Source of the DNA: Amoebophrya sp. A120
Taxonomy: Eukaryota; Protista; Dinoflagellata
Length of the DNA: 64,000 bases
Reading direction: 5' to 3'
Assembly (NCBI GenBank): GCA_905178155.1
Contig: CAJINV010000011.1
Coordinates: 2,313,331 to 2,377,330, forward strand
Shown in pieces: positions 6,878 to 46,641 of the stretch. How positions within the stretch are numbered: position 1 is the first letter of the stretch; the number at the start of each line of letters is the position of its first letter. The notes beneath the pieces are model-generated. The model was not told the origin of the DNA, did no database searches, and saw nothing but the letters and a program-made list of their open reading frames with translations. The translations under genes and the position numbers were made by a program.

Positions 6878-9492
6878 ATGGCGAGCCCTGGGACGACGAC
6901 AAAATTCGGCAAGCCGTCGAAGGCAGTAGCGTCCAAAGTCTTCGTTGTTGCGTCGGCACTTCTAGGAGGAACAATACAGCGCGGCCTCTCGTCAACACTA
7001 TCCTCTTTTCCGAGCCGGAGCCATTTCGTTCTCGCCCAGGAGTATGATCACAACGACCGAGCGTCATCTTCTTCACGTAGTAGTCCTTTGTTCTCTTGGC
7101 TGGATCAGCAAGAGCTGGAGTGGCAAAGACATGGCGACGACGACCGCCCCCTCATAGAGTCCCTCGTACCCGTCGGAGCGCTGCATGGGACCGCTTTGTT
7201 TCGGGACAAGATCAAGAAGAGACAAGAACTAGTACCTGGAATAAAGACCAGAAGAAGTACAACTTCTACAACTACTTCCGAGCTCGACGTGGCGCGGAAA
7301 AACCTCAGAACCGCGTCTACCCTGGAAGATGAACAACGACCCGAAGTCGACCAGCACGACAACTGGATGCGCATGCTCACACGAACGAAAAATGGCCGCA
7401 AAGTGCTCGCGAAGCTGTACGCGCGAAGCAAACCGGGCGAGCACCCGGACGCCGTTTTGGAGCAGCACCTCGACACGGTGATCACGGAACTCCGGGACGA
7501 GGAGGAGAGGGCGAGGGGTGGTGTATCCGAGAAGACCACAAGAACGTCCTCTGGTGCAACTACATCAAACCGAGGGGACTCGGTGTCTGCGGGAGGTACT
7601 ACGACTAGCGCCTTACAAACGAAAGAACAAGAGCCGATCCAAATCGTGCAGAATCCGGCGCTGAAGCTTTACGTGGACAATCTGGACGTGCTTTCCAAGC
7701 AGGCGGAGACCGCTATGAGACAGAGAAAAGCTAGCAGGGAATATTTGTAATGCAAAAACAAATACATGAAGGCAAGGATTTGGATTCTGTCTTGCGATGC
7801 GTGGCCTAAAAACCGTGCTATGGGCCTCTGCGCATGACAAATTTATTTGGCTAGTTATTTCTGCATTACAAATGTGGCTATGTTAGCTTTTCTCTGCCGG
7901 GATAACCGCGGACTCGCAGTTCCGAGCCGCGATGAGCTACGGGAATATGGCGTCGGCCGAGCTGGACGAGCTCGGCGTGGACGACAAAGGAAACGATTTA
8001 CCCTATCCTGAGTAAAAACGTACACACACGACCAGAGTTGTGATGGGATTTGCAAAGACAGGAAGACTTGTAATGCGCATCCCCATGAGAGCCATTTCCA
8101 ATCGTGTTTTGGAATTTGTGATGCTGTGAACAGGATGAGCAGATGAATCTGTGATGCGGCTGCACTTGCTAACCTGCACTACACTGCAGAGTGCAACTTG
8201 TCATGCGTGACTCACAAAACTCCTAGGCTTGTGCTGCACAATCCGCATCCTGACTCTGGTGTGGGTACGTTTTTACCTAGGATATACCCTACTCGAAGAT
8301 GGTGGCTATGTACTGCAAAAGTACAACCGTACGCGTATGAATTGCAGTCATGCGTGACAAATATGCTTCTTGTTCTTGCCAAGGTAAATCAGCGTCACAA
8401 CTTCTCTTTGTCATGCTGATGTTAAATTTGTATTGCAGTTTATTGCAATTACTACTAGTACGATCGATGCACTTTTGCAATTCATAGTGTCGGATGTCCA
8501 GCAAAAGCTGGACCAGCGGCGAGACAAACTGGAAAAGGAGCTGGACCGGAGCTCGCACTTGGCCGAGCACGTGCTCAGCGCTGGTCTGAAGGACACTCTG
8601 GCTGGGCGAGGCACCAGGATGCGGAAGGCGGATGAAGGGTTGGAGGAACGTACTTCTATGTCAGGTTGATGATTCTATCGAAGAGCAGGATTTCGTTCTC
8701 GTACGTAGTGCAGATTTTCGCGATGAAGAGGTGTTTTTCTGATGCTCATGCTTGTTTGTCCATGAAAGGTGTACTCGTTAAATATCGCCGTAATATCGAT
8801 AAAGCACCAGCAAAAACTTGTTCTATCAGGCGTAACGAAAAATTCCGACGGGACAAAGACGTACCACTTGACAAAGGAGGAGACAGTGGACTTGAAGAAT
8901 CAAATCGATGAGCACACGCACGTGGACCCGCGACGGCACAAGGAGGCGAATCTGAAAATCGACGAGCTCCTGCAAAACCGACTGGACGATGCGAATGACC
9001 ACTTGCGTAGCATGCAGCTGTATCAACAGAACAAACTGTTCGGGCCGCGGAAGGGGTTGGCCGAGCTGGTGGACAAAGAAACATTTCCCGCGAGGTATTA
9101 CAATGAAAAATGCTCCCACCCCCGAACTTGGGAGCATTTGTATTGCAAACCTTTCCAAATGAAACACTCGCCCGCTTGCATCTAGCAGCATCACAGATTT
9201 CCGATCGTGAGTAGCAAAAATTTGTATTGCAAAAGATCCCAGCAAGAGCGGCGCTTGTCATGTAAGCGATGCGATACACGCCTAGAATCAGCATCAGAAA
9301 GATTCATACTCCTTTCATGCATGACAAAAAGTTTATTTAATTTGGAAACTTAAACTTTGCATCACAAAATTTTGCAACTTCGGGGGTGATGGCATTTTTC
9401 CTCGCGATACGAGGTCGCACTACGAAGCTCTACCCGTGGCCCCGGCGGTGGATGCGCAGAAAGCCGTGAATTTGGACGAGGAAGGGGACTAG
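6878..9492 (+). CDS. Hypothetical protein with an N-terminal hydrophobic segment and a helical/coiled C-terminal half; 4 introners plus 1 probable GT-AG intron (8650-8829)
   Basis: Continuous frame after removing 7714-7904, 8004-8284, 8307-8486 and 9096-9409; TAG at 9490-9492. Confidence 0.65.
7714..7904. mobile_element. Introner (TAT..CAGAGAAAAGCTA TIR)
   Basis: TIR tatgagacagagaaaagctagca / tgttagcttttctctgccgggata; DR ACCGC/ACCGC. Confidence 0.85.
8004..8284. mobile_element. Introner, family B (TATCCTGAGTAAAAACGT TIR)
   Basis: DR TACCC/TACCC; reverse-complement homolog of 17375-17653. Confidence 0.92.
8307..8486. mobile_element. Introner, family D (TAT..TGCAAAAGT..GTAC TIR)
   Basis: DR GTGGC/GTGTC; frame restored (KMV-S-DVQQK). 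Confidence 0.8.
9096..9409. mobile_element. Introner, family E (TATYACAATGAAAAA..CCCACCCC TIR)
   Basis: DR CGAGG/CGAGG; inverted homolog of 15397-15726. Confidence 0.9.
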
Positions 9493-12527: not shown

Positions 12528-13332
12528 AAGGGAGTGAAACTTCGAAGGGAGTCAAGGGAGCCAAGGGAGGAAGATAAAACTTGTACAAATTGCCTCCCCT
12601 AAAATCATCGCAAAAATCCATGCTATGGGCGCATTTACCGGCCACCGGTTTGGGCCCTGCTGCCCCCCCCGCTGCGGCCCCAGTTTTGGCCGCGTTTAGG
12701 CTTTGGCTCGCTGCCGAAGGTCCTGGCCTCTTGAAGAAGGTGAGGGCTTCTAGAGTAGCCCCCGTAAACAGAAGTCGCCGGGGCGGCCTGGCCTCTGCCT
12801 GGCAACATAGAGCGTGGAGCCGAAGGACCGCGTAAACTGTTGCCGTGGCCATGTCAAGTTTCCGCTGTCCAGGGGAAGTTGAGGCAGCCACCTCAGCAAT
12901 TTGCTTATCGAGATCTTTCGCGCGAGGTTCTGCGTGACCAGATTCAACGTCATGCCGAGCAGAGAATACGAATGAAGTGGAAATGTTGCAGCGGCCACTT
13001 CGACTTTCTTCAATCGGGAAAGAGTTGCAGCGGCCGTCGGAGCGCGCCGCAAGTGTGAGGCCCACACGCGTAGCATATGCAGCCTGCTTCGCATTGATGC
13101 TTCGCAACATTCCCACATGTGGGCGTATGTCCTACATGTTGCACGTGCCTCGCCGCGCGCGCGCGCAGCGCGCGGCCCGAAAAATTTTTGTGGTGTGCGC
13201 ACACATGTCGACTCGCGCGCGCGCAGCGCGCGCCGCGAAAAATTTTTGCTATATGGCCATCGCATTGGCGCGCGCGACTGCTTTTTTAACTTACTCCCTT
13301 GACTCCCTTGAAAAGTTGCGCTGTACTCCCTT
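12528..13332. mobile_element. 805-bp non-autonomous TIR element (MITE-like), intergenic
   Basis: Ends AAGGGAGT...AAGGGAGTCAAGGGAG and CTCCCTTGACTCCCTT...ACTCCCTT; GGC on both flanks (12525-27, 13333-35); GC-rich interior with no credible ORF. Confidence 0.7.
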
Positions 13333-13482
13333 GGCTGGCGCCAGACACTAATAAACCTAATATATGTAGTAACACAACTTCTAACAACTACAACATCGAC
13401 GACTCTCATCTTCTCCATAAACTTTTTCAATCGAATATTAAAGCGTTTTTACCGTTAAAAGAATCAATCAAAAACAAGCACC

Positions 13483-16400
13483 ATGGATCTGCTTCACGAG
13501 ATGCGCAAGCACGCGGGGCCGCGGCTGACCGTGGGCTTGTATGACAGTGCACAACTACTCCCCCTCCCCCCCCATCTGTAAGTATAGTACGAACGGCTTT
13601 ACGAGCATCAGCAAGAGTGCCGGTTTTGCATGACAGATTTGCACTGGAGTGTAGTGCTATTTGGGGCATTAGATGAACTTGTGATGCATAATAGTGAAAG
13701 GAGGGAAAGCGTGGATTTGGTATTCTGCATGAGAAATGAGAACGAGGGGGAGTTGTGCATTGTCATAGCTTGCCCCAGGAGTACATCAAGAAATTTCTCG
13801 TGGAAGACCACCAACTCGTGCTGGCGATCCAGCACGCGCACGAGAAATGGAAACAATTAGATCCCGCGCAGACGTACCGGAAGCCGGAGGGGCAGCTGAT
13901 CGCGGAACTGCAACAGGGGTGGTGCCACCTGTACCCCGAGGACACGCGGAACCCCTACGTCCCGCTGGCCGCCAAGGGGCCCTGGATCGTCACCATGTAT
14001 GGGGCCGTGCTGCACGATAACGGCGGCTACGGCATGCTCGGATTCGGCCACTCCCCGGACGCGGTGATGAAGGCCATGTCCGAGGACGTGGTGATGGCCA
14101 ACATCATGACCCCGGCCCTTATGCATTGCAAAAGAATCGTATTGTAGTATGACTTGCATGACAAATTTTCTTAAGAACAAACACAAAGGTAACTGCTACA
14201 ATTTGGCATGCTAGTCCAGGTAGAAGATCGGGTTTGTGATGCATGATTTTGATTGCAAAAACCTCGTACTGCGACGGCGATACTTTTGCAATGCATAGCC
14301 CTGTATCAACTGTAAAAATGTCTGGGTCTGGAAGAATCCAACTTGTCATGCTGATTTTGGATTCCAAAAAAATCTGTATTGCATGAGCAGCAAAGCGAGT
14401 CCAAGTTTTGCTACACGGAAAGAGCATTTGTCATGCGGTATAGGCATCAGGAAGCCCTCACAAAATCTGTGATGCTAGGGCATGCATCACAGACATCAGG
14501 AGCCATGCAAAATGTGCATGACAAACCTGGAAATCTTCCAGACGCAGACATTTTTACATTTGATACCCTGGGGCAGAAACAGTTCATCGACGCGTTGCAC
14601 AAGGAGATCGGGTACCAAATGTAAAAGTGTCTGGGTCTGGAAGAATGCAACTTGTCATGCTAAATCTGAAGCATGCGAAAATCTGTGTTGCATGATTACC
14701 AAACGTCGTCCAGTTTTGACCAAGTCGGGAAGGACTTTCTCATGCAGGATAGGCATGAGAGAGATCGCGCAGAATCTGTCATGCTAGGTCCTGCATTCCA
14801 GACCTCATGGGTCATGGAAAAGCTGCATGACAAATCGCGCATTCTTCCAGACCCAGACACTTTTGCATTTGATATCGGGCACAACCGCCCGGACGGGTGC
14901 CCCTTCAGTGGGTTTCTTCTCATGAACTCCGGTTCGGAAGGGAATTCCGTCGCGGACCGGTTGATCGACATCCACACGGGGACCGTGATGGCCGAGCCGG
15001 AAAACCGAAATAAGAAGGTGAAGTGCGTCGCGCTGAAGGGCTGCTTCCACGGCCGGACCTACCGCCCCGCCCTGTGGACGGACGCCTGCCACGAGCGGTA
15101 CAGCTCGGCGGGGGTGTACTCGATCATGAAGTTATCCGAGAAAAAAACTGTGTTAGTGTAGGTGGCGTGAGGTGACAGCATGAGAAATCTGTTCTGCATG
15201 ACAGAAAAAGCATGTCATGCGCAGCTACTAAGTGAAAACACAAATGAAATAGGACTTCATGGTTGGCTAGCATGACAAGTCTAACAGTGTTGCATGCTTT
15301 GCATCACAGACTTACACTTACACAGTTTTTTTCTTGCATAGAAGTCCTACGAAGAGGAGTACTGCTGGATCTGCGAGGTGAACGACTGCGCCGACCTATT
15401 ACCATGAAAAATGCCCCCACCCCAATAAAAGTTGCAATAATTTGTGATGCGAAGTTTCCAAATGAAAACTTTTTGTCATGCATCAAAGGAATATGAGTCT
15501 TTTCTTAATCTTATCTTTTTGGTGCAGAGTCTAGGCGTATATAGCATTGCTTGCATGCGCATGGCAAGCGCCGCTCTTGCTGGGATCTGTTGCAATACAA
15601 ATCTTCGCTATTGACGATTGGAAATCTGTGATGCTGCTAGATGCAAGAGGGCGAGTGTTTCTGTTGGAAAGGTTTGCAATACAAATGCTCCCAAGTTCGG
15701 GGGTGGGGGCGTTTTTCATTGTGATACGACCTGCAGCGGCTGTTTGACAAGGCGGTGAAGGAGAATTGCTTCATCGAGGCGATGTTTGTCGAGTCCGTCA
15801 TGGGGGAGGGAAATCCCGGCGTGGCCATCACGGCGGAATTTTTCGCGAAGGCACGGGACTTAACCCTGAAACACAACTCCATGCTGCTTGTGGACAACAT
15901 TCAGGCCGGCATCCGCACGACGGGAAATCTTTCCATCGTGGACTACCCGGGCTTCGAAAAGATTCCCGGCCCGATATCCAAGAAAAAAACTGTGTTAGTG
16001 TAACTTTCTTTGGTTGCCAGCATCACAAATTTGCTCTACATGACCGAGAAAACCTGTCATGCGCGGCTTGTAAGGGAAAACACACATGAAAAGAGGACTT
16101 CATGGCTGTCGGGCATGACAGATGTAACTCTGTTGCATATTCTGCATTACAGAGTTACACTTACGCAGTTTTTTTCTTGCATATCCGGACTTCGAGGTGT
16201 ACAGCAAGGCGATTAACGCGGGCCAATACCCGGTCTATGCATTGCGAATATGTCTAGGTCTGGAAACTTGTGATGCTGAACTGTGCACGACTGAAATACT
16301 TCCCAAGGCAGCCAAGCATGACAAGGCTGCCGAACACTTTGCCATGCGCAGTCCGCATGACAAGCTGCGCTTTTATATGACACAAGAGGGCGTTTCATCG

Positions 16401-17876
16401 TTGGTCATGCAATACAGATCTTACAGGAATGTAGAACTGCATTACAAGGTCCATGGTTCCAGACCCAGACATTTTTGCAATGCATACGGTCTCCTGCCTC
16501 GCCATCTCCCCCCGCGCGCAGGCGTTCTACAAGCACGGGGTGTACGGAAACACGATGACGGGGAACCCGCGGGCGTGCTTGGTCGCCGCGGCGGTGCTGA
16601 ACAGCATCACGGAGCCGATGCGCAAGAACATCGTGCAGATGGGCAAATATGCAGTGGAAAAGTACAAGGAACTGCAAAAGGAGTTCCCAAATCTGATCAC
16701 AAACGTGACCGGCACCGGACTACTCTACGCGGTCCAGTTGAACGAGGCAATTTTCGCGGTGGTCGCCCGGGACGGGGCGGAGTACTGGCTGCGACAGCAG
16801 GGCCTGGGCGTGATCCACGGCGGACACAACGCGTTGCGGTTCACCCCGCGGTTCTGGATCACCAAGGCCGAAATCGACTTGCAGGTGGAGCTACGCATTG
16901 CAAATATGTTTGGATCTGAAAAGAATGGGACATGTGATGCTAACTTTGAATGATACAAGAACCTGTATTGCATGAATAGCAAAAGATTTGCGTAGATTTT
17001 TGCCACCCGGGGAGTGCATTTCTCATGCGGGACAGGCATTAGCAAGCCTTTGCGAGAGCTGTGACGCTAGAGCATGCATTACAGGGGTCGTGTCGCATGT
17101 ACTATTGTGCATGACAAACTCCCCCAATCTGGTGCCAGACCCAGAAAGATTTGCAATGCATAGAAGCTGGTCCGCGCGTTTTTGAAGCGGATGGACAGCG
17201 AGGCGGTGCGGCTGTTGGCACCGAGGTTGCAGAATTTGCGAATCGCGTCGTTGCGCGACATTTCCTCCACCGCGGCGGGGTCGTCCACCGGGGCCTCTTC
17301 CGGCGAGGAAACCTTCGGCGCCTTGCCGGACAGTGGGGACAGTAATAAGCCCCCGATGAAGTCAATTCAGCTGCTATCCTGAGTAAAAACGTACCCACAC
17401 CAGAGTCAGGATGGGGATTTTGCAACACAAACCTAGAAGCTTTGTGAGTCACGCATGACAAGTTGCAGTCCGTAAGGTAGTGCAAGTTAGCAAGGAAGGC
17501 CGCATCACAAATCGACCTGCTGATCCTGTTCACAGCATCACAAATTCCAAAACACGATTGGAAATGGCTCTCATGCGGATGCGCATTACAAGTCTTCCTG
17601 TCTTTGCAAATCTGCATTACAACTCTGGTGTGGGTACGTTTTTACTCAGGATAGCTGCAGCTCAAAGGGCACCTGTTCGACGAGAACATCATCAACGAGG
17701 TGCTCAACAAGGTGGAAAAGACCGAGGGCTCGGCGCGGATGCTCAGTTTGCGGTTGGGGGACAACGTGCGCGAGCAGTCGGAGGCGAAGTTGCAGGTGTT
17801 CACCCCGGCACCGCGGAAGAACGAGTTGCTGAAGCAACTGCAAGTGATGGAAAATTGCGAGATCACGTCGTCTTGA
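13483..17876 (+). CDS. lat: PLP-dependent class III aminotransferase, bacterial L-lysine 6-aminotransferase (LAT)-like, with a C-terminal LKR/SDH-interdomain (Saccharop_dh_N-like); 10 introner introns
   Basis: Spliced protein carries NPYVPLAAKGPW, LHDNGGYGMLGFGH, MANIMTP, NSGSEG, FHGRT, ESVMGEG, LLVDNIQAG, PDFEVYSKAINAGQYP (PLP lysine), YGNTMTGNP and LRFTP, then LKGHLFDENIINEVL. Confidence 0.85.
13540..13767. mobile_element. Introner, family F (TATGACAGTGCACAACT..CCCC TIR)
   Basis: DR GCTTG/GCTTG. Confidence 0.9.
14120..14297. mobile_element. Introner, family D
   Basis: TIR TATGCATTGCAAAAG; DR GCCCT/GCCCT. Confidence 0.9.
14304..14565. mobile_element. Introner, family A
   Basis: TIR TATCAACTGTAAAAATGTCTGGGTCTGGAAGA; DR CCCTG/CCCTG; inverted homolog of 27052-27313. 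Confidence 0.92.
14613..14874. mobile_element. Introner, family A
   Basis: DR TCGGG/TCGGG; near-identical to 56415-56726. Confidence 0.92.
15133..15340. mobile_element. Introner, family C
   Basis: TIR TATCCGAGAAAAAAACTGTG; DR GAAGT/GAAGT. Confidence 0.92.
15397..15726. mobile_element. Introner, family E
   Basis: DR CGACC/CGACC. Confidence 0.92.
15975..16183. mobile_element. Introner, family C
   Basis: DR CCCGA/TCCGG; removal gives PGPDFEVYSK. Confidence 0.88.
16236..16486. mobile_element. Introner, family A
   Basis: DR CGGTC/CGGTC. Confidence 0.92.
16892..17162. mobile_element. Introner, family A
   Basis: TAC start; DR GGAGC/GAAGC. Confidence 0.85.
17375..17653. mobile_element. Introner, family B
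   Basis: 29-bp perfect TIR TATCCTGAGTAAAAACGTACCCACACCAG; DR GCTGC/GCTGC. Confidence 0.95.
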
Positions 17877-22862: not shown

Positions 22863-24680
22863 ATGTCGGATAATCCCGTGTGGAAGGCTTTTAAGCCGTT
22901 CGTGACCGGTTCTATCTCCGGTTCCGTTGCGACATGCTGCATCCAGCCGATGGACATGGTGAAGGTAAGGATCCAAGTTGCCGCGGCCGAGGGAAAACCA
23001 ACCTCACCGGTAACGATTGCAACCACGCTGGTGAAGGAAGAGGGCTTCCTGGCGATGTACTCGGTAATAATACAACTTCAGGATCGATGGCTATGGCTTT
23101 AGTTTTGCTTCCTGGTTCTTGATGGTGCTGAAGGGAAAAAATGCAAAGCAATCGAACAGTCTTCACAATACCCGAAGTCGAATTTTGTTCATCACTGTAC
23201 AACAAGAAGAAAACCTCAACGTCAACAGGGTCTCTCGGCAGGGTTGACAAGGCAAGTCATATATACCGGGGCGCGACTGGGACTCTACGACATTTTCACA
23301 GACATGGTACTGATTTTTTTGCGACGAAGTGATTCTGCTCAACATGATTCGAGATGAACATATAAGTATGTAAGTAGTTCTAGGTCGTTCTGAGGTTTCG
23401 AAATGCATGCGTGGGACGTCGTCATTGATGTTTCGATATGCAGCATGTGTGAATGTGTACTATTTTAAAAACTGTTCTATACTTCAGGCAAAAACTCCGG
23501 GTGAGAAAACCTTTCCCATGTGGAAAACCGCCGCGTGCGCCCTGTCTGCCGGTGGTTATGCAAGAAAAACTGTGTATAGTGTAACTTTGTAATGCAGAAC
23601 ATGCAACAGAGTCGCACTTGTCGTGCGACACAGCCATGAACTTCTCGGTTCCTGTGTGTCTTCCCTTACAGGCCACGCATGACAGATTTTGTCTGTTGTG
23701 TAGAGCAAATTTGTAATGCTCTCGGCCAAAGAAAGTTACACTAACACAGTTTTTTTCTTGGATACTGGGATAGCAGCGGTAATTGGTAACCCAGCAGACC
23801 TGTCGTTGATCCGCATGCAGACGGACAGCATGCTCCCAAAAGCCGAACAGGTGGGCTACAGACACGCGGGACACGCTATGTCAAGTATTGCTTTGCTGGT
23901 TCTACTCAGATGTATTTTTTCCACGTGAAGATCGACACAATATTAAATACCTGTGATCTATTGCATGCAGATGAGTACCACCTCCACCTCCTAGATTATC
24001 CGTAGATCCAACATTTTTGCATGCCGTTGTGACCAGTTCAAGTTTAAAAAAAATTTTATTGCAATGGAATTACCTCTTCAAACAAGGTATTCTGAAAGGC
24101 GAGGGCTTCGTTGGTCTTTTCAAGGGCTCTGTGCCCACGAGCGTCCGCGCGATGGCGTTGAACTTGGGAATGCTCGGCGGAAACTCCGCGGCAAAAGATT
24201 TTTTGTCCGGATCGTTTGGACTGGAAAAGTCAGGGACAGCATGCGTGTTCGGGGCATCGGCGATCGCAGGCTTCTTCGCGTCGGCATTCTCATTGCCGTT
24301 TGGTACTAAGTTGTAAAATTTCAATGATTCTATGAATTGCAAAAGAAGTTGTATCGTACTACGTAGTAATTGCAATAAAAATTCGCTTAGCATGCTGATT
24401 TCCATGGCAACAAGATTTGTATTGTGCCTGACTGCAATGTCAATTAAATTTAAATCCAGATTTCGTGAAGACGCAAGTCCAGAAGGCCAAGCCGGATGCG
24501 AACGGCAAGATGCCCTTCAACGGCCCCATTGACTGCGCCATGAAGATGTTGGCCGAGGGCGGTCCACTGCGGTTCTACGCCGGATTCCCGACCTACTACT
24601 TCCGTATCGCGCCCCACGCGATGATCACGCTCATCGCCCAGGACAAGGTGAAGAAATTCTGGCAGAGCATCGGCGCGTAG
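22863..24680 (+). CDS. DTC: Mitochondrial dicarboxylate/tricarboxylate (2-oxoglutarate/malate) carrier; 4 GT-AG introns plus 1 introner
   Basis: PFVTGSISGSVATCCIQPMDMVKVRIQ, GNPADLSLIRMQ, SLPFDFVKTQVQK and GGPLRFYAGFPTYYFRIAPH. Introns 23064-23228, 23307-23487, 23885-24086, 24303-24459. Confidence 0.92.
23557..23764. mobile_element. Introner, family C
   Basis: DR GTGGT/CTGGG; inverted homolog of 15975-16183. Confidence 0.88.
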
Positions 24681-31600: not shown

Positions 31601-34600
31601 GCCGATTTTGGTGGCCCAGCAGGGTTCGCGGGTTTGCGGTTTTCCACATACCTTCCTGGCCAGGTGGCCAGTTTGTCACGCAGGGGGCTACAAAGGATGC
31701 CCCGCTGCGAAATAGCAGACCGGATTTCGCTTTCAATGACTCGTTCCTTTGTACAATTTCAGGTCGTCAGTCGCGAATCTTCTGATAGCCAACAAGGTGG
31801 AGCTGCGTTTGGAGCGAAGCAAGGTTCTTCTCGGACCAGCACCACCACGAGCTCCACGGCCCGGCCAATGAAGAAATCGGAGTCCAAACCCGAAGTGCAG
31901 CAACCCTCCTCCGCCACAAAGCAGCAGCTGCCGCGACTGAAAGCGCCAACGGACACCGGGTTGCGCCGGACCACGACCGCTGGTGGCGTGACAAGTTCCG
32001 GAGGTGGATCCTCGTCGTCTTCCAGCAGCTCCAGTTCCTCGTCCCAGCCACAGAGCAAAAGTTCGTCTACTGGGTCTGCTTCAACGAAAGTAATGAACCC
32101 AGCGACGTCGAGCAGCAGCAGCAACAGCAGCTCTCAGGAGAAGATGCACCTCTACTACCCACACGCATCATCATCATCATCATCATCATCATCAACCCGC
32201 GAACATCAAGACAATAATTCCTTAAACGCTTTGCTCGCGGGGACGTCGTCGCGGCCGCGCCGCGCGCTGTCGGAAGACCTGGCGGACCTGGTGCCGCCCG
32301 GGGGTCCCGGGAAAAGGCACAACGAGGACGCGGTCCCAAGGCCTGGGAGCGGGATATCACAGGAAAAAAGTGCATACAGTTTCACATTTGTAGTGAATTT
32401 AGCAACACAAATTTTCTCTGCATGAGACAAAACTTGCAATGCAGAGATCATAAGGGAAAACAAAACTGAAACAAGGCTCCTATGCTTATCCGGCATAACA
32501 GAGGTGGTCTGTCTTGCTCGTTCCGCAACACAATAAATGTGCAACTGTAGCTACACTTTTTTCTTTGCATACAGGAACGCGGCAGCGTACTACAGGAGTC
32601 TGGGGATTGATGTGACGAAGCCGAACAGCGCTTCAGCATCCGTTATGTAGGTCAATTCCCAACGACCCTAAATCACTATGATCGCATTCACAAAAAGAAA
32701 AAAGAGTCGGCGCAGATTGTGCCGGGCGATTCGGATGGTAACCAGAAGCAAAGCCGCCCACCACCAGAGGCAGGCGCGCTAGGGATTTCCGTTGGCGGCC
32801 GCGTTGCGGCGGCCCGCGCCACACCATTCGCACTTGGCCCAGCGCTCCGGCGGCATTCCCTGGAGCCGTTGCTGGGGGGTGCAGGGCCGAGCCACTCGTT
32901 GCTGTGGTCGCATTAGCGAGCGGCCCACAGCAACGATAGCACGCATAGCACGCACAGCACGCATAGCACGCACAGCACCGTGCGCGGGCCAAAATTGTGT
33001 GCTATGTGTGCTGTGGCACCCCCGACACAGCAAACATAGCAAGCATAGCACGCATAGTACGCATAGCAACGAGTGGGCATTGAGCCGATTCTCTGCGTGA
33101 CTGCGCGCAGCAGGCGGGGGCGCGGCCGCAGTAGGATTAGGGTGCCAGGGGACCCAACGGGAGCAGCCGCTTATCCAGCGAACAGCGAGGAGCTCTACAC
33201 TGCAGCCGTGGAAGTTCTAATGACCCGGGGGCGTGCCACGATGCAGGGCGACAATTCAGCACTCGCTCCAGATTCGACAGCCATTTTTTTTTTCTTGTAT
33301 TGCAATCATAGCACAGAAGGGTCGTTGGGAAATTGGCCTACTCGACATCCGGTAGTATACAACCCGGAACATCCTCCAGCTCGTCCTCGTCTTCACGGCC
33401 ACGCAGCAGCCACGGTGTCCTCGACAAGAACAACGCAGCCGCTGCTGCTGCTGTTGCGAGACAGTCGTCAGGAGGTACAGTGGCAATTAGTATTACGGCG
33501 GCAGATGTTGACCGTCCGAAGGAAGATGAACTACAAGGGCAGCAGGAACTGCAACATCTGGAGCCTCTTCCTTCTGCCCCCGCTCCCAGTCATCGCCCCG
33601 GTGAATTACAATATCGGGACGAAGATTTTTTTGGTCGAGCGTCTCCCTCTCCATCACCGCCATCCCGTAGAAGCGATAGCGCTGTTGCGCTGGGGAAATT
33701 TCAGACAAGTTCCACCCATGCGATGAACAAGTCCTCCGGTTCATCATCGTCCCCAAAAAAGTCGGGAGGTAATTCAGGTAGTAGTAGTTCTACTTCATCT
33801 ACATCAACCCGAGGGGCAGTTGCTGGTCGGAACAGCGCGCCACAAGTGCTTGGCAGCATCAACAAGCCTGTCCTAGCTGCGCATTCTGGGGCTGTTCTTT
33901 CTGCAACGGGGGGCCACACAACTTCTAGTGCCTGCTCGCCCATCGCGCCGCCGGGGGAGGACTTCGATCAGCCTAAGAGTGATGGAAATTCTATCGGGGT
34001 TAGCGGACGAGAGCCCCCGCATGCCGAAGATGTCGCCCTGGTGTCCAGCGCGGCGACTGTAGTTCCAGCAGGAAGTTCGTCTACAAGGAGTCCTCCAGCA
34101 GCTGACCTTGTTTCTACTAGTGCTTCAAATAAACCTCCTGCTGCGACGACGAATAACCCTCTTCCTGCGCAGTCCAAGAAAGCGATGGCCTTTGCGGACT
34201 ACCTGCAGGACGTGCTGCCGAAGGCAAGGCTTCCGAAGAGCTTGCTTCTCGCAAACGACGTCGAGGATATGCCAGGAGGTGCAGGTTCAGCTGCAATACA
34301 CCCGCCAGCGCCGACAAGTAGCAACGTCGAGAAGCCCGACATCAAACCTTCGTCCACCGCTGGGGTGTCTAAGATGACGAAACCCGATTTCATCCTAATG
34401 ACGAATCAGAAACAGCACGACAAGACCGGAACGGGAACGACCGTTTCTACCGCCTCGAGCTCGCGCGTCGGGTCGAAAGAACTGTTGCACGGTCACCAAA
34501 ACCACTCGGTCTCCACAACGCTGCAGGAAAATTCCTGTTCCGCCTCCTCCTCGCCCCTGGAGTCCGCCCCGGTTGTGGAGGGAAGCACGTCGAATTCGGC

Positions 34601-37275: not shown

Positions 37276-40200
37276 ATGCGGCTGCTTCTTCTTTCCGCAC
37301 ACCTGTCTGCGGTACGCCTGGCTTTTGGAGATGTCAGCGCCAGCGTCCCGGGCCACTACAAGGTGGGCGGCACTCTGCCGACCTGCAGCGCCACGACCGA
37401 GTTCGTTAACTCCCGGAGTCGCGTCTGCGAAGCCTGTCCGAGCGGCCAGATGCCCAATGCGGACGGAACCGCTTGCGTTTGCGCACCCCTGAGCGCGAGT
37501 GGTTTCAAGCTGCTTTTTTTTCGAGGAATAGACGCTTGATAATTTTAGGAGGCATAATGACTGGTCGTGTAAAAAGCAGCATCGGTTGAACATGACCGAC
37601 AAGGGTATCTACTTTTGAATGTCTACTTGGTTTCTTGTTTCCTCGGAAGTAGCTAAAAGGGCAATCTATCATTCACCACAACAGGCAATCCGCAGATGTC
37701 GTGTTATCCGGGGCAAGACTGTATCAAGCACCCCGGCGCGACCGCGGTCACGACCACCTCGGGCATCCAGTGCATCGAATGCGGCTGCTTCGATCGCAGC
37801 AACAGCACCGCCAGTGCGTACCCCGACCAAGTATCGGGACAGAGTTGCACGGGTAAGTACTTATATTCATATCATGTTAGTGTCGTTGTAGTCGTACTCG
37901 TACGATTCTGTCAGATTAGGGTGTACCTGCTCCGAAGGTTATGATCTCAACCTGAGTTGTCAGAGCGTGACCGAGTCGTGTGTAGTAAGTTCTTGTCCTC
38001 AACACGTCACGAACTACTGCGTTCTTTTCGAAACAGCAGCAATTTCACACCAGCCCGCGGCTTTGAGCAGATGGTTGCCACGGCGGACCAGTCCCGGTGC
38101 TTGCCTTGTCCCAGTGCAGCCGCGACCCTGGTATCCGTGTCTACCTCACCGGCGCGCAAAGACTGTAACTGTGGCACGAACCAGGCAATTCTGGAAAAAA
38201 GCGCCACCGGAGCCTACTTAACAGAGAAAGTTTGCCAGGTATAATTCTAGAACTGTACGTACCTACGCTCAAGGTCATCTCTGAAGTTTTCTTTGGTGTG
38301 CAGTCATGTACTAAGAATAAGGGCTGCAAATAGAGTTAACACTACCACTTCCACAAGTTACGAAGCCGGATCATTCAAAATTACGTCGCACATTATTAGG
38401 CGTGCGACTCCAGTTTGACCGTGGCCGCCGGCCAAGCGACTTGCGCCGCTTCCACCGCCTGTCCTTCTTCCACCACCACCTCGGGGCTCTGCTACACCCC
38501 CGCCTCCGACTGGACCGGGAAGGCCAACACGGCTGGCACCGCGCTGTCCTCCTTCGGGGTGCAGAGCGCGAAGCGTACCTTGTGTAACAACGTCCCCATC
38601 CGAGAGTTGTCATGCAGATTTACAATGACAGGAACATTTGTAATGCGCCTTCGCATGATGAGAAGCATTTCTAGTCGTGTTTCGGTACTTGTGATGCTGT
38701 AAACAGGATGAGCGCGCGTCTTTGTGATGCGGCTGCCCTTGCTAACCAGCACTACAATGCAGAGAGACCAAACTTGTCATGCGCGACGTCGAAAACTTGT
38801 GGAGTTGTGTTGCAGAATCACGATCTTGTTGATGACTCTGGGGTTGGGAGGTTTTTACGCAGGATAAAGCGCGTGAAGTTTTCCGCGGTGATTGCCAGTC
38901 CCGCCAAACCGGAGTGGTGGATGACAGACGCAGTGGGCTTATGGTGAGGAAAAACGTCCCCACTCCATAGTCAAGTTGGTAAATCTGCAACACAAATCGA
39001 TCCCCAAGTTTTGGGAGTTGCGCATGACAAGTTTCCATCTGCAGTATAGTTGTGGTTAGCAAGGGAAGCCGCATGACAAAGCTACTTTCCTATCCTGTTT
39101 ACAGCATGACAAATCAATGCCAAAACACGGTAGGAAATGTCTCTCATGGAGATTGCGCATTACAAATCGATTCCTCTCATTGCGCATTTGCATGAGAACT
39201 ATTGGTCGGGGAAGTTTTTACTCAGGACAGGGTTCTCTTCTCGGCTTCCAGAAGACCGACTCCAAAGCGCAGGAGATCCTCACCTCCGGGCTGGCCTCGG
39301 AGGCCACGGTCGACTCCGCAACCTTGGACTACCTGTACCAGGGGTGCGCCATTCAGTGTGCCCGGAAGGTGAACGAGGGCTGCGAGTGTTTGAGCAACCT
39401 CTGCGCGTTGCAGATGTACCACCAATATGGATTGCAAATATGTCTGGGTCTGGGAGATCGCGAGATTTGTCATGCTAGTCTGGCATGACTCTGATCTCTG
39501 TATTGCATGGCCGCGAAGACCTCCTCCTCCCTGTCATGCAAAAACGCAGTTTCTCAAGCGGAATACGCAACTCAGAACCAGGAAAAAAACTTGTCATGCT
39601 TGGCAGCGCATTATAGTGAGCTCACTATTCCCTTCATTGTATCACAAGTTTCCAGACCCAGACATTTTTGCAGTTGATAACCAAGACGCGACGGTGTGCC
39701 AGCTGTTGGAAACCTGGTTCTACACCGATGCGACGAACTACCCCGCCAGCGACTCGTCGCCCGGCATGTATGGAACTCTGCCCTGGATCATGTTCCCAGC
39801 GGGAGGTTACACCAAAACTGGCCTCACGCTCCCGGAAAGGTGTTGTTCTGGAACTGAGTACATATCTATGCAGTACCAAAGAACGATGTGCATGAACAAG
39901 TATTCTACAGCATCAATGCTTTCCCTTTCCGTCTTTTGTTGAATACGTCAGGCCCAAGAACTCCGCACGATTTTTCGCAACGACAAATTGTAAAGATGAA
40001 GCTGTGTTCTACTAACGTTGTCGCATCAAAAATACAACAGCTCCCCCTCCTTCGTCGTTGCAAAGTATTCCTTTGAAGGGCGGTATCTCGGTGAAGAGAC
40101 GGTAACAAATCACCTGCAACTTTGCGACCGATTTGGCGGATCCGCGCCGGGATTTGAGGATGATGCAAAGGTAGGTTGGTTCTTTCGCACCAGTGCCAGC

Positions 40201-43200
40201 GCAAGTGTATTAGATTCGAGAACACTCCTCCTTGACCACTTTCGAGAACTCTTGACGGCGCTTCATCTGTGTTCTTTCGAGATAAAATTCAATTGCCGCG
40301 ATGAATATACTTAATCACAAGTCCGAAAGAAGAACGCAACAACTCTTAACATCCACTTCAGGAGTACCTTTGGACGAAGAAGAACACAGTCGTCCAAGAG
40401 TGCCGTATTCCCGCCAGCACGTTTCTGAACCACGGCTTGTGCCAAGACCCAGTGCTCTACGACCTCTTCGCGGTCACCTCCAGTGGCGCCAAGACGCCGG
40501 TCCCGGTGCGCATGCTGAACACGGTCAGGGGGTCGACCAAGCCGAACGTGAACTTTGCCGAGGACCAGTTTTACGTCGACGGCTACAGTGGCTTCCTCGC
40601 CAAGCGGTTTTTTCTGTGCGACTCCGCCCTCGGGCGGACCAGCGACTTTTTGGGGATGAGCGACCCGGCGTATGTCCGGTACGCGGCCCAGGTTATCCTA
40701 TGTAAAAACGTCCCCACCCCATAGTCAAGATATTGCGAAATCTGCTAGACAAATCACTCAGCAAGCTTTGGGTGTAGCGCATGACAGATTTGGCCTCGTA
40801 GTGTAATCCTGTTTAGCTAGCTGAGCAGCGTCACAGATCTAGGACATCATGCTGGCTGGAGAGTGACAAACTTCGAAACACGACTAGAAAATGCCTCTCA
40901 TGGTGCTCCGCATGAGAAATATTTTCAGCATGCGCATTTGCATTACAACACTGGGGTGGGGACGCTTTTACTCAGGATACAGCTGTTTTTGCAGTTACGG
41001 GTGGACAGTGGGAGTCTGCAGGTGCCGGTCTTGAACATCGTCTACCTGGAAAGCACAGTGGCCGGGGGAAAGGACGCGTCGCTACCCTGCATCTTCAAGG
41101 CTGAGTATCAAATCTATCAATTATGCTGAGCGTGGTATCTGCGTTACCTTCTTGTTGTTGTTCATGAGAACGTCGTTGCGAACTTTTCGCTATTGTTTCT
41201 GTTTGTGTAGAATATTAACTCTACGTGTGCAGGAGCAGGTGCTGATATTTAGGATCTTTGTACGAACGAAAGCTGACAAAGCGACATTGTTCCCTATAAA
41301 TGAATTGAAGGTTCTCCGAGGATACCGCCGGATTCTGGAGCGCCGTCACGGTGTTTCTGATCCTCACGCTGATCCTCCTCCTTGGGCTGATCTACCTCCG
41401 TTACCGCTCCATTGAATTGCGCTACCCGTGGGAATCCGGTTTCGCGGCGGATCCGGGCCTGTTCATGGGAAAGAGCCTGCTGATGCTGTTGACGGTGGTG
41501 AAGATCTCGTTTGGCGTTTTGTTCTGGTTCCACTTTTTCATGGTGCTCTACTGGGTGGTGTCCGACGCCTACCTCTTACCCGGTTCGCTGGATGGCGACC
41601 AGTACAATCACCACGACGTCATGATGACGGTCTTGCTCGTGATGGCCTCCTATGCGTAAGAAAAAAATTTTTCTCGTACTTCTACAAGTAATTGTTCCAT
41701 GGCATGACAAATTTTTGCAGAAGCGAAAACGGCACAAGTGTTTTGTTGTCGTCGTGTGAGAGCAAGTACTTGCAAAGCACGTCCGGTACTGTAGTTTTTC
41801 CTCCATGGTATAATTGCAACAATTATTAGTTACGTGTAGTACGATAAAAATACGATGCTTTCGTCTTCCATACCACCGTCGTGATCCTCCTCTTCCTGTA
41901 CAAGCAGGCTTCCTGTTTCATTTTCCTCATAGATCGCGAGCCGAAGCCGCTGCAGGACGGCGCCTCCGGCGGGGCTAACAAAGACCAGAACGGAAACAAG
42001 GCACAGCAGAACAACCCAGCCGGGGGCGCAGATTTCGATCGCGAGCACGCGCCGGACAAGGGGATCTCGATCTGGCGGTCGCTGTTTGTCGGTACAAAAC
42101 ACAGTTCTTGTTGTCCATATCGGCGGCCTTGATGGACCTTGTTTTCTGTTTTTCCTACTTCGGAGCCTGGTGATCAATGTGTTTATTTTCTCATGACCTG
42201 CCGTGCACCATCGGGATCGGAGAAACGGAACAAACAGCTATTTTACGGGTTTGTTATACAGAAAATCCACCTATAGCTCGACTTCCCAAATATACTACAC
42301 TTCCAGGGAACGAACTTTCGGAGCGGATCGCCGCTACTAGAACGTCGGGATACGCTATGGAGGGAAAAGAGTTTGTCACAGTGACAGTCACTAAGCTGCA
42401 TAGTCGCGTGACAAATGTTTCTAGCGTCACAGCTTTGTTGTATTGCAGAAACACTAGGGAAATCCCGTATGAAGTTTCACTGTCATGCATGGTTACGCAT
42501 GACAAACATCTCATGGTTTTCTAAACCATTCCTTTCGATATTAAGATTGCAAAAATGCGCATGAGAAGTTAGTAATCGTGACGAACGTCTTTGGTTTGAT
42601 ATACGCCACCTGGATCCTGATGATCCTGTTCCTCCAGGGCTTCAATTGGGTTGACAGCTGTCGCTGGTCGGGCAGCGAGCAGAGCCCCTTTAATCCCTTT
42701 TTGATGTACGGAGTCACCGGCGGGACCTGGTTGCTCTCCGTCGCGATCCAGCTTGTCGGGCGCCATTTGATCGCCATGCGGGAGGGGCTATGCATGGCAA
42801 ATATGTCTGGAAGGTTGGAACTTGTAATGCTAGCCTTACATTCCTGTGAAATCTGTATTGCATCATGACCGGCAAAAGGTGTAGCCTCTCTTGTCATACA
42901 AAACCGCAGTTTCTGATGCGGAGTGCGTATGAGAAAGCGTTCCGCAAGACCTTTGTCATGGCTCCTTGCATGAGGAAGCGTTTTCATCATGCACATTTTA
43001 GCATCACAAATTTCCAGATCCAGACATATTTGCATTTGATAGGGGCTGGACCTGATCAACTTCGTCGATATCTGCAGTCTGGCAAACGTGTCCGTCTTCA
43101 TCATGGACGAACCCCATCACGGCTACTACATACACGGTGTCTTGAAGATCCTTTTATTTCCTTGCGCGACCGTGTTGTGCTTGTGGCAGCTGCTTTGAAG

Positions 43201-46200
43201 GAGCAAGTCGACATTGATTGATGTCGTCACAGTGTTCATGATTTTTCAAACACTGTGGTAATGATAAACATAAACGAACATCACAGGCAAAATATTGATA
43301 TTCTATTCACTCTAAAAATCTTCCAGGTCGTTGTCCCGGGGGTAAGGGTGACTGCTGCGCCACCGAGATGTCCTACACGCTCGATGAGGAGGCACGCGGG
43401 CTTCTCCCCAAGCGCGGCCTCACTCCGGACCACCCTTCGCGGGGCGAGTTGCAGACCTTCGAGGTGTTTACCCCGGGCGGGTTCAAGGAGCAGCTTTTCG
43501 GTCTGTACCGGCAGATCCTGGCCGAGCGCGGCGTCCCCGGCATGTTTGCGTCGCACTGGCACGGTGAGCACGACCAATTCGGCGGCCACCACATGGGTAT
43601 GCACTTTCCGGGCCACTTAGGCGGAGGCCAGCACCAGATGGGCATCGGGCAGACGCCGCGCGGATCCCAGATGCTCGGGCAGCAGCAGCTGGGGGGTATG
43701 GACCCGATGAGCAGCGGCCGACAGTCCCAGCTGATGAACAGCATGGGCGGCCAGCCGCAGCAGCAATTTGGCGGCTCCAGCGGCAGCAACAACTCTACTT
43801 TCGGGCAGCAGCAGCAGCAAAATGCGTTCGGGCAGCAGCAGCAGCAGTCATTCGGTGCACAACCAGGCTCCGCTTTCGGGCAACAGCAGCAGCAACCGCA
43901 AGCGTTTGGCCAGCAGTCGTCGTTCGGGCAGCAGCCGCAGGCGTTTGGAACTCCCGGATCGGCGTTCGGCGGGGGATTTGAAGGGGCACATCGGGCCGAA
44001 ATACCTGCTCCGACACCAACTTGCCGGTTCGAGCAGAAAGGCGGGAGCAGTAGCTCCACGTTTTATCGCAGCAGTAGTCGTTCTACTTTCGGGACAACTA
44101 GTACTGGAAGGAGAGCAGCGGCGCCGTGGTACCACCCCGGGAACTGGCTTCCTGGCCGGAAACGAAGCAGGTTTTTTTCTGGCGGAGTTGATGCGAGAGG
44201 TTTTTCTGCTCCGCCAGCAACAGTGTTGACGGGGAGCAACATAGCAGCCAACGCAAATACATGTGCGGCAGGAACAACGATGTTGAACCACGAGCTCCAT
44301 GCCCAGACAGACACTGTCATTTCTCCAGCGTACCAAGTAGACGAGCTACAGCACGGAAACTTTTCCAGTGTACGAAACCCGCACGCACGCCCAAGGATAC
44401 GAGACGAAGGCGAGATGACTGGTGGAGTAGAATCTCCTGTGGGTGTCGACGTCGCGGAGTTGGATTCGTCTCCAGAACTCCTGCCGTCGCGGTCCGGCGA
44501 AGACGAGACCGGTAGTAGTTGCCAACTTGTCTGGTCACACACGGCAAAAAGCGAAATAATCGAGTTGGAGCGAATATTGCACCAAGCCGATCTACAACAC
44601 GATGAACCGGCTGCAAATAACGAAGATACACATGAAGAGGGCCAGTACGACAGAAGATCATCCCACGTCGAAAAGAAGCGCAAAATATCAGACGAGAAAG
44701 TAGCGATAGTAGAAGCTTCTGCAAACGGCGTAGAGCCACGAACTGCAGCAGGTGAACTCATCGACTACGAGCTGCCGCAGCCCGAGGATCTCCACGTGGT
44801 AGGAAGTACTAAAACCGATGAGGATCATCTTCATCATGACCAACATCTCCAAGTAGAGGGCGCCCATTCGATGATGATGGACAATAACAATCGGAACTCC
44901 GGCATGAATCAGTTCCAAGGCTCGCTGAACCTCGGCAACCTGAACAACCAAGGCATGATGCCGCAAAATTCCGGGCGGGGTTCGCAGATGTCGGCTTTCG
45001 GCGGTCAGAACACGATGTCCATGTCCGGGGGGCCGCGGCCGTCCCAGGGGTCAATGCAGATCGGCTCGCAACAGTCCATGCCAAATGCGTTCGGCGGGGG
45101 AAATCAAATGCAGAACTCGATGATGCTCGGCGGAGGGAACGCTATGCACAACCATATGAAATTCAAACCGATAGAGAAGTTCGTCACGATCATCACTCAT
45201 GCGCATTTTCGCAAGACAAAATTGTCTGTCATGCGCAAAAATGCATCACAGTCAAATTCCAGAAGGCCGCTACTTCCTTTGTGCCTACGCAATTGACAAG
45301 AAAGAGCAAAAGCTGGGACGCAAGAAAAATTTGTCATGCAAATAAACCTGCAATCAAGTACTTTATGTAGTGACTCTGACGAACTTTTTTCTTCGTGATA
45401 AACCAGTTCAACCCCGGCGGAATGGGGGCGAGCATGTCGATGGGCGGTGGGCTCGGTGGCGGCGCGAGCAGCAGCGTGCGGAAACTGGCCCAGCTCCGGT
45501 ACCAAATGCAGGAAATGCTGCTGCAGTTGGTGGACGGGGTAGTGCGGGACCAGTCGATGTGCATCAAGGAGGAGATGTATCAGAGTGCCCAACTCCCCCT
45601 TCCCCTCATTTGTCATGCAAAATGCCACGTCTACCCTTTGCCCTCTGGCACCGGTTGCATGACAGGTTGCCGAAGCCGCAACAGCACTAGAATTTGCAGT
45701 GAATTTGTCATGCAAAAGCTGCATCTTTGCCAGCACTTGTGTTGCTGTGGATGCCATCCAAATGAGGCGGAGGAGGAGTTGCGCTCTCGTCATAAGATGG
45801 GTTCGATGTTTGGCGCGACGCCCGACGTGTCTGTGCCCACGTTCCCCCCGACGTTCTACGAAGATCCGTCGCACTTGCGGTGGACCAACGCGATGGCGTG
45901 TATGCATTGCAAAAGCAGCGTACTAAATAGAGATCACATGACAAATTTCGTCAAGAGGAAAATTGAAACTTGTCATGCAGAAGTAGGTATTAGAAAGTAC
46001 ATCTGTAATGCATGACTGCAATCAATAGTACGAGTACGGTACTTTTGCACGGGATAGCTTACGGGCCGGAGCTCCTCGGCGTGCCGACCGGATTCGAATG
46101 GCAGGTTTTGGTATTGGAGTACCTCATCTTCGTATCCAAGAAAAAAACTGTGTCAGTGTAAATCTGTGATGCAGAAAATGCAAAACAGTTACACTTGTCA

Positions 46201-46641
46201 TGCTCGACATGCGTGATCGGCTCGCTTCCTATGTGTTTTCCCTTCCTATCTGCGCATAGCAAGTTTTTCTTGTCATGGCAGACAAACTTGTGATGCTGTT
46301 TTCCCAAAAGACTTACACTAAAACAGTTTTTTCCTTATTCTTGGATACTTCGCCGTCTGTTTCCGCTTCAGCGAGAACCTGTGGCTGGGGATCTTCCTGG
46401 GCTTCCTGGTCGGCCAATTGGTTTTGTCGGTCCGGGCCTCGTATCCTGTGCAAAAGTGTCGTACTCGTATTGCAGTCATGCATTACAAATCCTTTCGTTA
46501 AAAAGGTAAAATCCGCATTACATCATGCTGAACAAATTTGTAATGCATTTATACGAGTACGATACTTGTGCAGCTCATACCTCGTTGGGCGAGTCGCGCC
46601 TGGCAGACACCGCCATGATTGACCATAGGTTTCTGCTCTGA
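37276..46641 (+). CDS. TMEM67: Meckelin (ciliary transition-zone protein), with 12 introners and several GT-AG introns
   Basis: Signal peptide and Cys-rich N-terminus; CECLSNLCALQMY; FLIDRE; SIWRSLFVGNELSE; NFVDICSLANVSVFIMDEPHHGYYIHGR; C-terminal LGESRLADTAMIDHRFLL*. Confidence 0.92.
38576..38866. mobile_element. Introner, family B
   Basis: DR AAGCG/AAGCG. Confidence 0.85.
38940..39229. mobile_element. Introner, family B
   Basis: Ends in ACA; DR GGGCT/GGGTT. Confidence 0.8.
39426..39679. mobile_element. Introner, family A
   Basis: DR ACCAA/ACCAA. Confidence 0.9.
40694..40979. mobile_element. Introner, family B
   Basis: DR CAGGT/CAGCT. Confidence 0.88.
41651..41872. mobile_element. Degenerate introner
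   Basis: TATG...CATA ends; DR CCTCC/CCACC; frame restored. Confidence 0.7.
42356..42601. mobile_element. Introner, family H
   Basis: DR TACGC/TACGC; inverted homolog of 45155-45400. Confidence 0.8.
42789..43041. mobile_element. Introner, family A
   Basis: DR GGGGC/GGGGC; homolog of 16236-16486. Confidence 0.9.
45155..45400. mobile_element. Introner, family H
   Basis: DR AACCA/AACCA. Confidence 0.8.
45578..45794. mobile_element. Introner, family F
   Basis: DR AGATG/AGATG. Confidence 0.85.
45901..46056. mobile_element. Introner, family D
   Basis: DR GCGTG/GCTTA; removal gives MAYGPE. Confidence 0.8.
46133..46347. mobile_element. Introner, family C
   Basis: DR CTTCG/CTTCG. Confidence 0.9.
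46442..46579. mobile_element. Introner, family D
   Basis: DR CCTCG/CCTCG; 138 bp. Confidence 0.88.

Follow-up and report, generated by a model that had tools for sequence, protein, structure and literature searches.

In a 64,000-nucleotide (nt) stretch of the genome of the marine parasite Amoebophrya sp. A120 (contig CAJINV010000011.1, positions 2,313,331 to 2,377,330; hereafter the window), the gene at 13483..17876 on the plus strand encodes, in 11 exons, a 621-amino-acid class III pyridoxal phosphate (PLP) aminotransferase with a C-terminal LOR/SDH (Saccharop_dh_N) domain, predicted to be a lysine 6-aminotransferase. Our analysis indicated, with good confidence, that this is an intact aminotransferase gene with ten miniature transposon insertions, E1 to E10, which are absent from a likely RNA contig and are probably excised at a fixed position under the guidance of their hairpins. 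The ten elements (178–330 nt), which were without a transposase, accounted together with 5 nt each for 2528 nt (57.5%) of the 4394-nt locus, consistent with a preliminary description made from the DNA letters alone, which had put their share at more than half. When each element and 5 nt were subtracted, an open reading frame of 1866 nt (621 codons and a stop) was left with zero internal stops, as that description had also claimed, and with a GC content at third codon positions (GC3) of 0.86. The GC content of the elements was 38–46%, against 61% for the exons, and keeping an element in the gene produced stop codons or a frame shift.

Four sequencing runs, X1, X3, X16, and X17, were compared with the stretch, the RNA status of X3 being an automatic guess. 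All ten elements were absent from one likely RNA-derived contig, a single X3 contig of 2748 nt with a depth of 241, so that removal from RNA with non-canonical ends, as in published A120 introners, was found for all ten in agreement with the earlier claim of removal without GT-AG. The listed joints of this contig skipped 233, 450 (183 + 267), 267, and 213 nt, and the coordinates of its pieces gave other skips of 335, 214, 256, 276, and 284 nt, the first three of which were derived by arithmetic using two contig pieces (51 and 46 nt) absent from the listing. The contig also carried the likely 5' untranslated region upstream of the ATG (13331..13482, plus strand), its end not being a start site. 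Within E1, E5, E8, and E9, which are low-copy elements, coverage bins had depths of 9–31, as compared with 241 for the spliced contig. Contigs of X1, of which 18,403 mapped to the 64-kb stretch, crossed exon–element borders and spanned E2 and E9 completely, and none lay on the four listed precise skips, some joints not being counted. The raw-read runs X16 and X17 yielded 7 and 0 reads, respectively, too few to bear on excision. Environmental runs had shares of only 0.05–0.13, which say nothing about strain or habitat. In total, the element plus 5 nt was removed in 22 of 22 cases, ten here in the X3 contig and 12 in the public gene model P0259 elsewhere in the window. The spliced protein was collinear with P0227 of Amoebophrya Ameob2 (77% identity over 627 columns) and with P0003 of Amoebophrya A25 (72% over 648 columns), and there were no insertions or deletions relative to either at the ten junctions.

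A hairpin with a short direct repeat is the expected setting for "falsitrons", skips made by reverse transcriptase switching templates across hairpins between direct repeats (PMC8240250, as far as its text was available), and the transcript data are all cDNA-based. Such an origin of the skips was nevertheless judged highly improbable: retention of the elements leads to stops or frameshifts, yet the exons are 72–77% conserved with the high GC3 given above, and the high-depth contig was without all ten elements, whereas a minor contig holding E8 had a depth of only 8.2. Ciliate internal eliminated sequences are removed at the DNA level, and by analogy the elements might be lost from the DNA in some life stage, a process that TA at both element ends and a transposon origin would suit. 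This explanation appeared to be just as remote, as X1 contigs joined elements to exons while showing none of the four listed precise skips, and as the unit removed was the element plus 5 nt and not TA-to-TA. Both a reverse transcription artefact and DNA-level excision were thus made unlikely by the X3 and X1 contigs together with the end-to-end alignment of the spliced protein with P0227 and P0003.

All ten elements began with TA(T/C), ended with ATA, and lay between 5-nt direct repeats, a length within the 3–5 nt reported for A120 introners; eight pairs were perfect, E9 matched at 4/5 and E7 at 3/5 positions. All but E8 were in the plus orientation. E1 (13540..13767) lay between copies of GCTTG, with 233 nt removed, and had a relative in reverse at 45578–45794. 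E2 (14120..14297; GCCCT/GCCCT) was removed with 183 nt as part of the 450-nt skip that it shares with E3 (14304..14565; CCCTG/CCCTG; 267 nt removed). E4 (14613..14874; TCGGG/TCGGG; 267 nt removed) had a 95% identical relative at 56415, and E5 (15133..15340; GAAGT/GAAGT) was removed with 213 nt. For E6 (15397..15726; CGACC/CGACC; 335 nt removed), an 80% relative was present in reverse at 9096–9409. E7 (15975..16183; 214 nt removed) had the mismatched duplication CCCGA/TCCGG, with base 1 of the left copy and base 5 of the right copy retained in the contig. E8 (16236..16486; CGGTC/CGGTC; 256 nt removed) lay inverted, on the minus strand, and both the public model P0001 and the minor contig kept it. 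The duplication of E9 (16892..17162; 276 nt removed) was GGAGC/GAAGC, left base 2 being retained, and E10 (17375..17653; GCTGC/GCTGC) was removed with 284 nt although its stem reached 2 base pairs (bp) into the duplications. Each of the ten elements had a target duplication of its own, which upheld the proposal that all introns arose by independent insertion; it is these duplications, and not the ancestry of the gene, that mark each intron as a new insertion.

Pairwise comparison grouped E3, E4, E8, and E9 (mutual identity 61–76%) and E5 with E7 (80%), and left E1, E2, E6, and E10 separate, reproducing the order F, D, A, A, C, E, C, A, A, B given in the preliminary description; the number of six families depends on the threshold, because E6 and E10 were weakly related (57% identity, z 13). 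As expected of repeated families, nine of the ten elements had a relative of at least 120 nt elsewhere in the window, E2 being the one without at that cut-off, and members of one family occurred in both orientations within plus-strand genes. Terminal complementarity covered 16–20 of the first 20 bases in 10/10 elements, within the 8–20 nt reported for the inverted repeats of A120 introners. Among 60 termini, TAT was present in 57, G at position 9 in 47, and A at positions 11–15 in 40–56, in agreement with the published A120 motif of TAT, about seven variable bases, and at least three A. A window-wide scan found 44 terminal inverted repeat (TIR) candidates, as against 5 in one base-shuffled window used as a control; perfect 5-nt repeats flanked 22 of the 44, and perfect repeats of 6–9 nt were absent. 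Duplication mismatches showed no pattern by position (5, 4, 3, 3, and 3 over 36 candidates, some of them false). The TIRs and duplications suggest that the elements would have been inserted by a DDE transposase or integrase with a 5-nt staggered cut, and the termini TAT-N5-G-N-AAAA common to the families suggest one mobilising system for all.

When folded with 12-nt flanks, each of the ten elements gave a more stable structure (z −2.6 to −10.2) than 30 dinucleotide-shuffled controls, and terminal stems were predicted in 10/10. The same-family neighbours E3 and E4 were predicted to pair within themselves and not with each other. GT-AG was absent from all six duplication registers in 10/10 elements, which agrees with the earlier statement that none requires it and leaves them without the GT/GC-AG ends of U2-type introns. 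Across 22 elements, the ten here and the 12 of P0259, there was neither an AG nor any other fixed 3' dinucleotide.

Because perfect duplications conceal the cut site, the register, defined as the count of bases kept from the left duplication copy, was read from mismatched duplications. In the X3 contig, E7 allowed registers 1–4 and E9 registers 2–5. In P0259, the element at 40694 allowed at least 4, that at 41651 at least 3, and that at 45901 at most 4, while 38940 was uninformative. Register 4 was the only value that fitted all five mismatched duplications, and we therefore lean towards a constant cut after duplication base 4, giving an intron of the form N-TAT…ATA-NNNN; the two cuts would lie 1 nt upstream of the initial UAU and 4 nt downstream of the final AUA. 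Under register 3, GT-AG would have been available at 40694, an option that P0259 bypasses. Pairing past the terminal TA differed by element from 0 to 2 bp, yet 5 nt were always removed, and the UAU/AUA termini are for this reason likely to be the ruler, rather than the helix end. Codon logic by itself was insufficient to settle the register for eight other elements. A further element at 23557–23764, in a frame that resembles what we take to be a mitochondrial carrier, had duplication mismatches at positions 1 and 5, like E7.

A variable cut position, shifting inside the 5-nt duplication under the direction of the repeat itself, was considered a less probable but still sizeable alternative, under which the exon between E2 and E3 would be 0–6 nt or both elements would leave as one piece. 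The duplications of 16/22 elements were perfect and so silent on the register, splice sites are called variable in the published description (PMC7789003, in the part available), and P0001 sets the 3' end of E7 3 nt earlier, all of which would suit a sliding cut. By contrast, E7 was precisely excised with just 3/5 bases matching, and the five constraints converged on one value, which favours the constant cut.

E2 and E3 lay 6 nt apart, so that their duplications overlapped in the spacer at 14298..14303 (plus strand). Under any constant register, this 6-nt spacer leaves an exon of 1 nt, which would be base 14302 under register 4. The separate stems of E2 and E3 were predicted with mean pair probabilities of 1.00 and 0.91, respectively, and pairing of the left end of E2 with the right end of E3 had a probability of about 1e-9. 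A single 450-nt intron made of E2 and E3 was disfavoured, as its outer ends would be unpaired and as it would remove the composite plus 4 nt, against the plus-5 rule of the other 20 elements. It is thus rather likely that E2 and E3 are taken out one after the other around the 1-nt exon.

In the mechanism that we propose, the TIRs would pair into a terminal stem and so hold the two ends next to each other, and removal of the element with exactly 5 nt would restore the original coding sequence, as in 10/10 elements of one contig and 12/12 of one public model. For the excision step we tentatively favour a major spliceosome that lacks U1 and is steered by the hairpin, in keeping with the report that U1 was not found in A120 whereas U2, U4, U5, U6, and nearly all spliceosomal proteins are present (PMC7789003, in the part available). 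The nearest competitor, only a little less favoured, would dispense with the spliceosome: the base of the hairpin would be cut in a staggered manner by a protein endonuclease, and an RNA ligase would join the exons, by analogy with the nonconventional introns of euglenids. Enzymes of a tRNA-splicing-like or Ire1-like type are candidates for such a pair. The absence of AG or any other fixed 3' dinucleotide from the 22 elements argues for the nuclease–ligase pair, as do the predicted burial of the 3' U-tract in the stem and the irrelevance of element orientation to excision. Asymmetry also marks the Euglena signature, which has N3 on its 5' side and N5-6 on its 3' side, and non-spliceosomal factors are suggested in the paper describing it (PMC12501133, in the part available). 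On the other hand, no such enzyme has been identified, the retained spliceosomal components named above speak for a spliceosome, and canonical introns (8/20 gaps) alternate with element introns (12/20) in P0259. The U1-less spliceosome and the nuclease–ligase pair are about equally likely.

Several points weigh against hairpin-guided excision at a fixed position. The RNA evidence comes entirely from a single assembled contig, belonging to a run with a guessed RNA status, and orthologous empty sites were not seen. The five register constraints are few, and variable registers could fit them by chance; three of the five come from P0259, and such public models can misplace junctions, as in P0001, which has 3 surplus nt at E7 and keeps E8. 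Splice sites are called variable relative to the hairpin in the Fig. 3 legend of PMC7789003 (seen in part). Finally, the U at position +2 under register 4 follows from the first base of the element and is no independent support for a spliceosome.

With regard to the identity of the protein, two exons were separately above the cut-off of PF00202, with 34.5 and 56.7 bits, and a YSKA motif, presumably the PLP-lysine motif, was present at 336. The last exon (17661..17876, plus strand) matched the Saccharop_dh_N domain PF04455 with 41.2 bits against a cut-off of 23.5. The model TIGR03251 (lysine 6-aminotransferase) scored 70 bits on P0003 against a cut-off of 520.8, and among the matches listed no NCBIfam model reached its cut-off. 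By structure, the A25 ortholog matched best an Atlas cluster that bears the automatic name lysine 6-aminotransferase (TM 0.74/0.94). This name fits a domain from a lysine-catabolic enzyme, and lysine 6-aminotransferase is a predicted function.

Exon 2 was 100% identical to P0001, a protein labelled Amoebophrya sp. A120, and an exon at 40350 was 99% identical to P0259, which bears the same label. The public model P0001 (CAD7963518.1) agreed with ours to residue 352, after which E8, one frame of which is stop-free, was retained and the frame shifted, so that neither the C-terminal half nor the LOR/SDH domain is present in P0001. The gene model of the preliminary description is therefore better than the public one. 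The extra proline of P0001 at E7 was considered as alternative splicing and set aside as a likely annotation overlap, being absent from the contig and the orthologs. The model P0259 (window 37276–46638, Pfam PF09773) had 20 gaps, 8 with a GT-AG register and 12 corresponding to TAT…ATA elements, and it may fuse two genes near 43138–43326. Models of this type are transcript-based according to the annotation pipeline in PMC7789003 (seen in part).

Among the matches listed in a scan of GTDB, the nearest named non-dinoflagellate homologs were prokaryotic, with 44–51% identity. Amoebophrya A25, AT5.2, and Ameob2 carry the gene as well, as do core dinoflagellates, represented by Dinoflagellata sp. 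TGD and a member of a Polykrikos kofoidii cluster. For a phylogeny, 55 proteins were combined with 40 of 80 GTDB loci and 4 of 80 loci from metagenomes, and the resulting FastTree tree (100 rows) was drawn from its midpoint. In it the window protein grouped with AT5.2, Ameob2, and A25 (support 99), inside a 53-row side (support 100) with the EukProt transcript GEMP01005775.1, Dinoflagellata sp. TGD, the Polykrikos kofoidii cluster, and 23 metagenomic proteins; all 40 GTDB rows lay on the opposite side. These 23 full-length, mostly fused aminotransferase–LOR/SDH proteins (P0125–P0193, P0012, P0136, P0138), from metagenomic contigs of up to 315 kb, stood beside the dinoflagellates and may represent a donor lineage or intron-poor eukaryotes. 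No intron-split ortholog was present among the best 80 metagenome loci and the GTDB matches listed, all of which were intact homologs. A bacterial ancestry, as claimed in the preliminary description, is thus plausible from the prokaryotic nearest homologs, but the gene is ancient and shared with core dinoflagellates, so that any transfer long predates the strain-specific spread of introner elements described in section 12 of PMC7789003 (seen in part). For the same reason, the description's suggestion that the gene was originally intronless neither explains its all-introner state nor is needed for it.

With the published intron density of 1.42 per kb, this gene would be expected to have 2.6 introns (Poisson P 4e-4 for at least 10), and with the density implied by 29,850 introner elements, 1.2 (P 5e-7). 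The gene is in the tail of intron density, but clustering is common: P0259 contains 12 elements, and five candidates, two of them with long internal palindromes, lay within 1.6 kb at 61549–63158. The GT-AG introns at 41105–41310 and 38239–38399 start with G-TAT, as would an element under register 4, and could be decayed elements turned canonical. Upstream of the gene, at 13150–13260, a CG-rich motif with AAAATTTTTT after it occurred twice and may be a promoter or small repeat. At 32892–33076, an inverted repeat surrounded short 9-nt tandem units (GCACAGCAC-like) and was unlike the TAT…ATA elements.

The introner elements of A120 have been described as having TIRs of TAT and an A-run, direct repeats of 3–5 nt (5 bp in the Fig. 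S19 legend), a length of about 240 nt, repeated families, non-GT-AG ends, and genes with non-canonical introns only (PMC7789003; this and the papers cited below are represented by the parts of their text that were available). The elements here belong to the same class, five of the six listed features being found; the text of that paper left the intron border open, whereas here the border would be N-TAT…ATA-NNNN with a 1-nt exon. For A120, 58 introner families, most among 21/58 rows being TIR DNA elements, and "tens of introns in a single gene" have been reported, together with one gene of at least 34 introns that includes 16 introners of 7 families (Dataset S3) and a family with homology to long terminal repeat elements and without Ginger termini (PMC12130899). 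An all-introner gene is therefore no surprise, and the number of introners in one gene is not new. The automated duplication lengths in that paper were 2 to 5 or NA (21/58 A120 rows), as compared with 5 nt throughout here.

The nonconventional introns of euglenids (PMC12501133) resemble the present elements in being like miniature inverted-repeat transposable elements (MITEs), in terminal pairing, in the lack of GT-AG, in frequent direct repeats, and in asymmetric stem-to-cut distances. Their signature N3CDG…CH'GN5-6|R differs from the TAT…ATA termini here, they belong to another supergroup, and they were tested by knock-in, while the present elements are known from sequence analysis. The introners of Micromonas and Aureococcus are likewise non-autonomous TIR transposons that make target duplications and become introns, but they carry or co-opt canonical splice sites, which the elements here do not (PMC11282704, PMC7789003). 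A constitutive 1-nt exon is also known from Arabidopsis APC11, where it lies between spliceosomal introns and was tested in vivo (PMC4674806); the one here would result from two adjacent transposon insertions. Neither a fixed cut register nor a 1-nt exon was found for these introns in searches of the open-access literature, though Figs. S19–S23 of PMC7789003 may bear on both, and no later mechanistic paper on A120 introns was found there. What is new here is the removal of each element with 5 nt in all 22 cases, the proposed cut register, the likely 1-nt exon, the excision of one family in both orientations, and the corrected gene model.

How tens of thousands of non-GT-AG introns are excised in Amoebophrya has been an open question since 2021, partly because the direct repeats hide the cut sites. 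The term "clean test case" used in the preliminary description is fair, on grounds that it did not list: one family member is inverted, two duplications are mismatched, and one exon is likely to be 1 nt long. All of this, with ten substrates, lies in a single locus of a size suited to reverse transcription PCR. If the fixed register holds genome-wide, it would provide exact substrate ends and a rule for genome re-annotation and would stand in direct contrast to the Euglena code. Beyond this, and more speculatively, A120 may possess a second splicing code that is blind to sequence, in which the machine would read only the terminal UAU/AUA hairpin, place its cuts 1 nt upstream and 4 nt downstream of this hairpin, and thereby undo at the RNA level any 5-bp transposon insertion in either orientation, even around a 1-nt exon. 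Were this true, every insertion of a MITE with the shared termini would be harmless, and tens of thousands of intron gains would be explained.

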